64,000 nucleotides of DNA, taken from the IMG/VR virus record IMGVR_UViG_2721755711_000002; one strand, written 5' to 3'. The translations under genes were made by a program, and so were the position numbers. Each line of letters opens with the position of its first letter. The stretch's first letter is position 1. Shown piece after piece: positions 16,693 to 17,031 of this stretch. The DNA is from a virus. Taxonomy: Duplodnaviria; Heunggongvirae; Uroviricota; Caudoviricetes. The notes below the pieces were generated by a model. The model worked only from the letters and a program-made list of their open reading frames with translations. It searched no databases and had not been told where the DNA came from.

Positions 16693-16763
16693 TCGAAAAC
16701 GATTATCGAATTCGATATGAATTTATATTGACACACATAGTGTGTTGACTGATACTGTCGCTG

Positions 16764-16877
16764 TACCCTGATGGGACTTGTGAGACTTCCGAACAGGAAG
16801 CCAGGAGTAGCAATAAGGTGATGACAAGCCTGCTGCCCCTGTGTAAAAGGCACCTTAATGGTGCCTTTGTCGTTTTT
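16764..16877 (+). ncRNA. Candidate small RNA (~115 nt)
   Basis: Promoter TTGACA (16728-16733), 17-bp spacer, GATACT; ends at terminator 16846-16877; holds only 16- and 38-codon ORFs. Confidence 0.2.
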
Positions 16878-16909
16878 ATCAAAAGATCCCCGCCACTGGC
16901 GGGTTTTTT
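16846..16909 (+). terminator. Two tandem rho-independent terminators
   Basis: AAAGGCACC-TTAAT-GGTGCCTTT then TTTTT (16846-16877); CCCGCC-ACT-GGCGGG then TTTTTT (16889-16909). Confidence 0.55.
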
Positions 16910-17031
16910 GTGCCCAAAAAACGGCACAGAACATTAAACGCGCTGGTGGTTGCGAATACTGGTCTTTCGGCTTGTATTTTTGTAAATCGATATATACTTA
17001 TCTTGTGACCAGTAATGTCAGGGCAATTGAT

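Follow-up and report, generated by a model that had tools for sequence, protein, structure and literature searches.

What is the element that lies between a PemK/MazF-like toxin gene and an AraC-family gene in the 64,000-nucleotide (nt) stretch of viral DNA IMGVR_UViG_2721755711_000002 (Caudoviricetes; hereafter, the window), and what might it do for the toxin gene beside it? The region around it is part of a lambdoid prophage. A sequence-only reading had noted a TTGACA-17-GATACT promoter, two hairpin-plus-T-tract terminators and only small open reading frames (ORFs) in this gap, and had proposed a small RNA, possibly an antitoxin of the adjacent toxin. Indeed, the promoter (16728-16756) and both terminators (16846-16868 and 16889-16903) were present between the two genes, and the only plus-strand ORF of at least 30 amino acids (aa) lying wholly within the element encoded 39 aa (16818-16937). 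Judged by its conserved promoter, its covarying helices and its matches in distant bacteria, the candidate is a real small-RNA gene with its own predicted sigma-70 promoter and intrinsic terminator. We further propose, with a probability of roughly 55%, that it is a type-III-like RNA antitoxin of the MazF-fold nuclease, the two genes forming a cassette carried here as a prophage moron.

Promoter-like matches alone were at chance level, with 5 sites per 3 kb versus 4.8 expected in shuffled sequences; terminators were enriched in the same scan (11 observed versus 2.6 expected). The significance of the promoter thus comes from its conservation, not from the match in the window alone. Conservation was counted in 76 distinct homologous upstream sequences, numbered from an invariant G (window position 16763). 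In the -10 element, A-11 was kept in 75 sequences, T-10 in 63, A-9 in 72 and T-7 in 67, and TTG at -35 to -33 was kept in 66, 58 and 57, respectively, with a 17-nt spacer. In Caulobacteraceae, the RNA promoter falls within the end of the protein-coding region. Since the spacing of the -10 and -35 elements to the invariant +1 G is fixed, the RNA is predicted to be an independent transcription unit with a fixed start.

The idea that the tandem terminators form the end of the RNA held for the first of them, P4, which belongs to the conserved RNA, but not for the second, which is part of the prophage backbone. In phage phiP27, a homologue of the second terminator and its flank lies upstream of L23, a methylase gene, a tRNA and stx2e, and a search of this phage with the covariance model gave no match to the RNA. 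Since phiP27 has the terminator but no RNA copy, we place the second terminator outside the conserved RNA. In Xenorhabdus, an unrelated terminator stands in place of P4 and the remainder of the RNA is retained. The palindromes that had been taken as a sign of regulation exist in the window but are missing from the versions in Enterobacter, Klebsiella and Xenorhabdus, and therefore give no evidence of regulation.

Comparison across homologues, which the sequence-only reading had named as a check, showed four covarying helices in the aligned sequences: P1, P2, P3/P3b and the P4 terminator. The single-sequence fold of 16763-16910 (-57.8 kcal/mol; z = -4.65) contained the same helices as the family model. 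In A2, a structure-blind MAFFT alignment of 42 non-redundant sequences with the window's own included, the RNAalifold consensus had double compensatory changes in 16 of 21 pairs. In the alignment to the covariance model described below, both sides were changed in four of the five P2 pairs (e.g., CG 42, UA 16, GC 12 and AU 8), and double changes were found in all 11 P3 pairs and all three P3b pairs. The E. coli copies are near-identical, so that all covariation comes from other genera.

A covariance model made from A2 (R1) matched the window at 16762-16879 with 92.8 bits (E 1.5e-21), the sole match in 64 kb; this score is partly by construction, because the window is among the 42 model-building sequences. 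When the manually drawn structure was applied to the R1 alignment, 85.0% of cells paired, versus 75.5% in shuffles, and both sides were changed in 25 of 38 pairs; the observed measures were reached by 0 of 500 shuffles. Sliding the partners reduced pairing to 39-54%. In addition to the helices, there are two unpaired motifs of near-invariant sequence, the junction CUUGUGAGA and the P3b loop GAUGACAA, and the RNA ends in a conserved UUUGUC-type tail. A pseudoknot between loop and tail (GAUGACAA with UUUGUCRU) would be paired in 92.7% of cells and is nearly invariant. A pairing of the 5' motif GCUUGU with the loop ACAAGC was rejected, as L069, L089, L056, L084 and L098 alter the motif without compensation (A2, by eye). 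A hammerhead-like or other ribozyme core was also rejected: the likeness (GAUGA, GUC) is superficial, with no Rfam match.

Does the RNA belong to the phage or to the toxin gene? Toxin homologues that were 65-79% identical were found in Enterobacter, Klebsiella and Xenorhabdus, all between a Q gene and lysis genes and behind three different Q families (PF06323, PF03589 and PF06530). Directly 3' of each homologue we observed a TTGAC(A/T) -35 element, a TAATACT-like -10 element, the series ACCCUUAUGGGACUUGUGAGACUUCC...GGAAGCC...GAUGACAAGCC... and a terminator, and compensatory changes were visible by eye. A protein scan, conducted with a 20-protein alignment against one genome per species, confirmed 464 loci, and toxin loci were found in Neisseria, Caulobacteraceae, Pseudomonas, Pasteurellaceae, Burkholderiales, Geobacteraceae and others. 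The toxin-RNA modules are spread over Alpha-, Beta-, Gamma- and Deltaproteobacteria.

Searching 88 sources with R1 yielded 81 matches of 52-110 bits, one per locus, on the same strand and directly downstream of the protein gene. Among the best 80 of the 464 species-level genome loci, the match was directly downstream in 73; six of the remaining loci had a related RNA upstream, and one lay on a contig too short to assess. Thus, no assessable toxin locus was without an RNA. Furthermore, Pseudomonas, Caulobacter, Geobacter and others carry the RNA at chromosomal loci outside phages. Because it follows the protein homologues in distant bacteria and in non-phage contexts, the RNA is genetically tied to the adjacent MazF-like gene and not to the flanking phage genes. 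The window copy has all features of the family: the four helices, both motifs, a consensus-matching promoter and a position beside a YifN-like PemK gene.

The protein matched Pfam PF02452 (PemK_toxin; 6e-14) and, by its sequence, is a member of a YifN-like clade of PemK; the JGI label of clade members is "YifN (PemK superfamily)." Its length of 133 aa is kept across homologues and exceeds that of classical MazF, from which it also differs by a C-terminal helix. The family alignment and the MazF N-terminal strand indicate that the true start is the ATG at 16291. RefSeq E. coli homologues are annotated as 114 aa, approximately 19 codons short, with the start at the equivalent of 16348 (e.g., L001, 3699-4043). 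AlphaFold2 with the family alignment gave a mean pLDDT of 90.4, and the best Foldseek matches in the PDB were MazF structures, with TM-scores of about 0.6-0.8 at 13-19% identity. In an hhalign comparison with E. coli MazF, R29 aligned with R29 and S50 with T52, and both R29 and S50 were invariant in the family alignment. R29 and T52 are the catalytic pair of E. coli MazF. From the invariant equivalents of the catalytic Arg and Ser/Thr, we infer that the protein is an active MazF-type endoribonuclease.

No partner protein was evident. In the window, the 100 nt between the terminator t1 and the toxin start contained no candidate antitoxin ORF, and in Pseudomonas and Geobacter chromosomes the toxin gene was solitary, with no adjacent candidate antitoxin protein. 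Searches of NCBIfam, PADLOC and PDB sequences returned no match to the protein clade or to the RNA. The yifN pseudogene of E. coli K-12 (L119, 3013-3461, minus strand) is distantly related to the toxin (29% identity over 52 aa; E 2e-4), and just downstream of it, at 2903-2957, a stretch weakly matches the RNA in its 5' half (P1 and P2; 13.5 bits). The K-12 yifN locus may be a decayed copy of the same toxin-RNA module.

The six loci with an upstream RNA (L100, L105, L106, L108, L109 and L113; about 2376-2489) represent a variant layout, in which a related RNA directly precedes the toxin gene; it ends in a terminator that stands about 10 nt ahead of the start codon of the toxin, and the interval contains no promoter. 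These RNAs are shorter, lack P2 and score weakly with R1 (12-16 bits). In the four variants from Pseudomonas, loop and tail have changed in concert (GCAAG with CUUUGC).

To find RNA copies independently of the protein, 41 viral and 120 metagenome loci were sampled by RNA motif; this sample is biased, because it was drawn with an exact pattern. It contained 121 credible RNAs with enough upstream sequence, of which 82 had the toxin gene upstream and 39 did not. Complete E. coli genomes had toxin and RNA in 23 cases and the RNA alone in 13. A scan of genome contigs with an E. coli 22-mer as exact pattern gave 0 matches, the pattern being too specific. Among the RNA-only loci are the same Pseudomonas LysR locus after deletion of the toxin, prophages with the order Q-pR'-RNA, and copies beside a HigA-like antidote gene or DUF6124. 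In the metagenome loci L230, L261, L241, L156, L177 and L211, the RNA abuts ORFs that start like a dnstrm_HI1420/HigA-type antidote and diverge at the RNA junction; in L162 and L182, it follows a complete antidote gene, and in L236, the toxin gene is convergent to the RNA. These arrangements may reflect recombination within toxin-antitoxin islands.

Of the earlier suggestion that the RNA is an antitoxin of its neighbour, the genetic link is thus borne out by the 73 of 80 loci; the antitoxin action itself we infer from four observations. First, the contexts that were inspected contained no partner protein. Second, orphan copies of the RNA occur, whereas an RNA accompanies every toxin locus that could be assessed. 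Third, a ToxIN-like layout is seen in some relatives, and fourth, the predicted catalytic residues are conserved. We propose that the RNA would neutralise the protein following a type-III-like logic, with direct binding as the most likely mode. Several of the sites recognised by MazF toxins have ACA as their core, and the ACA-containing P3b loop is a candidate protein-binding or pseudo-substrate site. We also take this loop to resemble the UAACAAG of 16S rRNA around position 1500, which is only a lead.

There is no terminator between the toxin gene and the RNA, and therefore every toxin mRNA should end at P4 and carry one RNA copy at the 3' end; transcription from the RNA's own promoter would provide RNA in excess. 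Since the cassette lies just behind pR' and t1, toxin transcription is expected to rise only on Q antitermination or leakage, while the RNA would be made constitutively in the lysogen. In some enterobacteria, antisense control may be added. Speculatively, the cassette could serve in abortive infection or exclusion, or in host shut-off late in the lytic cycle.

Several points weigh against the RNA-antitoxin proposal. The R1 alignment is fitted to the structure, although the structure-blind A2 agrees all the same; the loop-tail pseudoknot covaries little, which makes it a tentative element; and the association with the protein was read from only the best 80 of the 464 protein loci. In the type III systems known so far, the toxin processes an antitoxin made of RNA repeats of approximately 35 nt in tandem, whereas we found a single RNA of about 112 nt with four helices, in which Tandem Repeats Finder detected no repeats (the only hit, 13 nt × 2.5 at 16685-16717, lies outside the RNA). 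Finally, 23 of the 39 toxin-less RNA loci keep the -10 element, and hence the RNA may have a job of its own. It could then serve the protein as its dedicated substrate, cofactor or sensor, within a ribonucleoprotein of different function, or be a trans-acting regulatory RNA that merely shares the cassette. This would also fit the RNA-only copies next to unrelated genes (HigA-like antidote gene, DUF6124, Q/pR') and the two unpaired motifs, which are conserved beyond what simple protein sequestration seems to require. However, every assessable toxin locus carries the RNA, the RNA-terminator-toxin variants mirror known RNA-antitoxin systems, a predicted active nuclease would be hard to maintain without any inhibitor, and orphan antitoxins are common in toxin-antitoxin biology; we therefore regard an RNA that is no antidote as unlikely. 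Antisense control of a type-I-like kind, in which base pairing of the P3b hairpin to the toxin mRNA at its 5' end would block translation or trigger decay, is suggested by the 14-nt hairpin GGUGAUGACAAGCC. Its complementarity to the toxin 5' untranslated region (UTR) reaches 13/14 in Enterobacter (L024) and 12/14 in Klebsiella (L028), both at -28, where the complementary stretch (2973-2986) comprises the first nucleotides of the presumed toxin mRNA, and 11.5/14 at -25 in Neisseria (L034; G-U counted 0.5), each with p ≤ 0.0035 versus shuffled UTRs. The window retains 9 pairs at the same -28 position. These matches point to antisense control in some lineages, which likewise tells against a purely type-III-like scheme. 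General antisense action is nevertheless not supported, since the pairing is lineage specific: it was significant in only 3 of 74 distinct loci (window p = 0.28). A duplexfold comparison was uninformative, with cognate RNA-mRNA duplexes energetically no better than non-cognate ones (p = 0.66). Moreover, the loop is near-invariant across classes of Proteobacteria, which is unexpected if it only covaried with a free 5' UTR, and the toxin is a 133-aa nuclease fold rather than a small membrane peptide. We consider antisense action as the primary role improbable.

The position between the Q gene and the late region raises the question of whether the element is a short terminated late-promoter transcript of the lambda 6S, StxS and IsrK class, or the tR' cluster of the late leader. 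Functional, regulatory RNAs of this class have precedents in StxS and IsrK (PMC7547250). The same sequence follows Q/pR' without a toxin gene in E. coli S19-651 (L004), E9 (L005), L126 and others, in E9 after a lambda-like pR', and Rfam isrK (RF01394) gave a weak match over the two terminator hairpins (19.8 bits; E 0.59). This score is far below both the gathering score of 50 and the 79.3 bits of the true IsrK in Gifsy-1, and the Sakai StxS region has no homology. Immediately past the Q gene, at 16082-16186, there is a better candidate for pR' with its pause element and terminator, arranged as in phage 434. The RNA has a conserved promoter of its own, located 630 nt beyond Q and belonging to the toxin cassette, and it is present at non-phage chromosomal loci. 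The pR'/tR' identity was dropped, because toxin homologues in other genera and at non-phage loci carry the RNA with its own promoter, and so was the StxS identity, because the Sakai Sp5 stretch between Q and stx2 shares nothing beyond generic terminators. We judge a late-promoter transcript very improbable. The chance that there is no functional RNA at all, and that a fortuitous promoter-like site stands by gene-end terminators or that the 39-codon ORF is a protein gene, appears close to nil. Promoter-like sites are equally frequent in shuffled sequence at this stringency, and a hypothetical protein is annotated over the region in some E. coli genomes in RefSeq. Yet sequence, compensatory base-pair changes and promoter geometry are conserved across classes of Proteobacteria, and the 39-codon ORF reads through both terminators, with an annotated length that varies even among near-identical E. 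coli loci.

Table 1. Features of the toxin-RNA cassette and its surroundings (window coordinates)
Feature	Coordinates	Strand	Remarks
-35 element TTGACA	16728-16733	+	followed by 17-nt spacer
-10 element GATACT	16751-16756	+	promoter hexamers match 10/12
Small RNA, about 112-115 nt	16763-16877	+	from inferred +1 G16763 to U-rich tail
P1 hairpin CCC/GGG	16766-16775	+	closed by G16763-C16777; 97.9% of cells paired, almost no variation
Single-stranded junction CUUGUGAGA	16777-16785	+	near-invariant columns in alignments A2 and A3
P2 hairpin CUUCC/GGAAG	16786-16800	+	99.5% of cells paired
P3 long helix	16802-16841	+	16802-16812 with 16831-16841; capped by P3b
P3b	16817-16819 with 16828-16830	+	
P3b loop GAUGACAA	16820-16827	+	ACAA invariant (A2 columns A60, A63, C64, A65, A66)
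P4, intrinsic terminator of the RNA	16846-16868 (hairpin)	+	followed by GTCGTTTTT
3' tail UUUGUCGUUUUU	16866-16877	+	complementary to P3b loop, possible pseudoknot
Second terminator	16889-16909	+	hairpin 16889-16903, then T6; prophage backbone
Palindrome ATCGAATTCGAT	16705-16716		
Near-palindrome ACACACATAGTGTGT	16731-16745		over -35 region
PemK/MazF-like ORF	16291-16692	+	133 aa
Toxin 5' UTR stretch	16263-16276	+	partly complementary to RNA loop hairpin; 9/14, including 2 G-U pairs
Likely late promoter pR'	TTGCAA 16082-16087, TACATT 16105-16110	+	17-nt spacer; overlaps Q gene end
TGATAT, extended -10-like element	near 16122	+	possible sigma-70 pause site
Terminator t1	16165-16186	+	
DUF968/NinG-like gene	13988-15046		
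rusA	15047-15412		
Q antiterminator gene, phage-82 family	15403-16098		PF06323, 1.5e-83
AraC-family gene	17032-17778		Pfam
IS21 istA/istB	18380-20682		

The features surrounding the cassette are listed in Table 1. The layout of pR', pause element and t1 (16082-16186) is conserved after Q82-type genes in phage 434 (in which the terminator is annotated), PPompW phages and E. coli prophages, and pR' (16082-16110) together with t1 would likely yield a short RNA of roughly 65-70 nt. In Gifsy-1 (L003, 3675-3896), a TTGACA-17-CTATAT promoter overlaps the stop codon of a Q82-type Q gene, and IsrK begins a few nt beyond this promoter; the stretch also matches the c4 antisense RNA and a1b1 target families and lies upstream of an antirepressor-like gene. 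Compared to E. coli S19-651, the window has a 497-bp insertion (16241-16737) that bears the MazF-like gene and supplies the -35 hexamer of the RNA promoter. The 13-nt repeat at 16685-16717, together with a hairpin (ATAATCG-AAAA-CGATTAT), straddles the toxin stop codon. In two viral contigs, this repeat has either lost a unit or has an inverted loop (AAAA to TTTT; L012 and L017), and neither repeat nor hairpin is conserved outside E. coli.

The AraC-family gene stands in the place of the module of small ORF, DNA methylase and tRNA that follows the second terminator in related prophages. Its product is nearest to YdeO and GadX, under their curated cut-offs, and the gene has its own terminator (17803-17822). 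In the whole window, the single Rfam match above threshold was the ALIL pseudoknot (RF01497; 35848-35964, minus strand, 121.5 bits). Over the flagged region, Rfam 15 gave three weak sub-threshold matches (E up to 1), and over the RNA in eight homologous loci it gave none. A literature search that included RNA sequence strings found no description of the RNA family, within an incomplete coverage of the literature.

Few bacterial toxins are better studied than MazF, and we know of no MazF toxin described without a protein antitoxin. The clade is widespread, with 464 species-level loci from one scan. If the proposal is true, RNA antitoxins would extend past the repeat-based ToxI type, orphan annotations as "type II PemK/MazF family toxin" would be explained, Rfam could gain a well-supported RNA family, and a compact, experimentally tractable protein-RNA pair would be available for study. 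In enterobacteria, lambdoid prophages, Shiga-toxin-type backbones included, carry the cassette as a moron behind their Q-controlled terminator; this position in relatives of Shiga toxin phages makes it a candidate for a role in prophage-encoded defence or in shutting off the host. Where the RNA stands alone, it could give immunity to incoming toxin-bearing elements.

How does the cassette compare with known systems? Like lambda 6S, StxS and IsrK, the RNA would be short, terminated and made constitutively, and it lies in a lambdoid prophage with Q on one side and the late genes on the other; it differs in that it does not come from the Q-controlled promoter, is unrelated to StxS in sequence and is also found outside phages. 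Type I systems with a separately encoded antisense RNA, such as TisB/IstR-1 and SymE/SymR, share a small RNA with its own promoter beside the toxin gene, and the UTR complementarity of 11.5-13/14 in Enterobacter, Klebsiella and Neisseria is in line with them. However, the toxin here has a soluble 133-aa MazF fold instead of being a small hydrophobic membrane peptide, most lineages lack the complementarity, and the RNA sequence is conserved independently of the toxin mRNA. With type II MazEF and PemIK (Kis-Kid), the cassette has in common the MazF fold and the conserved Arg and Ser/Thr at catalytic-equivalent positions, but no MazE/PemI-type antitoxin gene is adjacent in the window or in the contexts examined, and the toxin forms a separate clade without NCBIfam, PADLOC or PDB-sequence match.

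The type III systems ToxIN, CptIN and TenpIN have an RNA instead of a protein partner, as proposed here for a toxin that is a predicted endoribonuclease. They are found on mobile elements and prophages, like the present cassette, and their order of upstream RNA, terminator and toxin gene without its own promoter is shared by the six variant loci. ToxN is described as having a Kid/MazF-like fold. In contrast to type III systems, most loci, including the window, have the RNA downstream of the toxin and under its own promoter, and the toxin falls into Pfam PemK_toxin (PF02452), i.e., the MazF/PemK family itself. Tentatively, and at slightly less than even odds, the cassette may represent a new RNA-controlled toxin family, in which a MazF/PemK endoribonuclease would be checked by a single-copy four-helix RNA with an ACA-loop pseudo-substrate, bridging type II (MazF) and type III (ToxN). 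In summary, type III modules are the nearest known systems, and the cassette differs from them in RNA architecture, gene order and toxin family.

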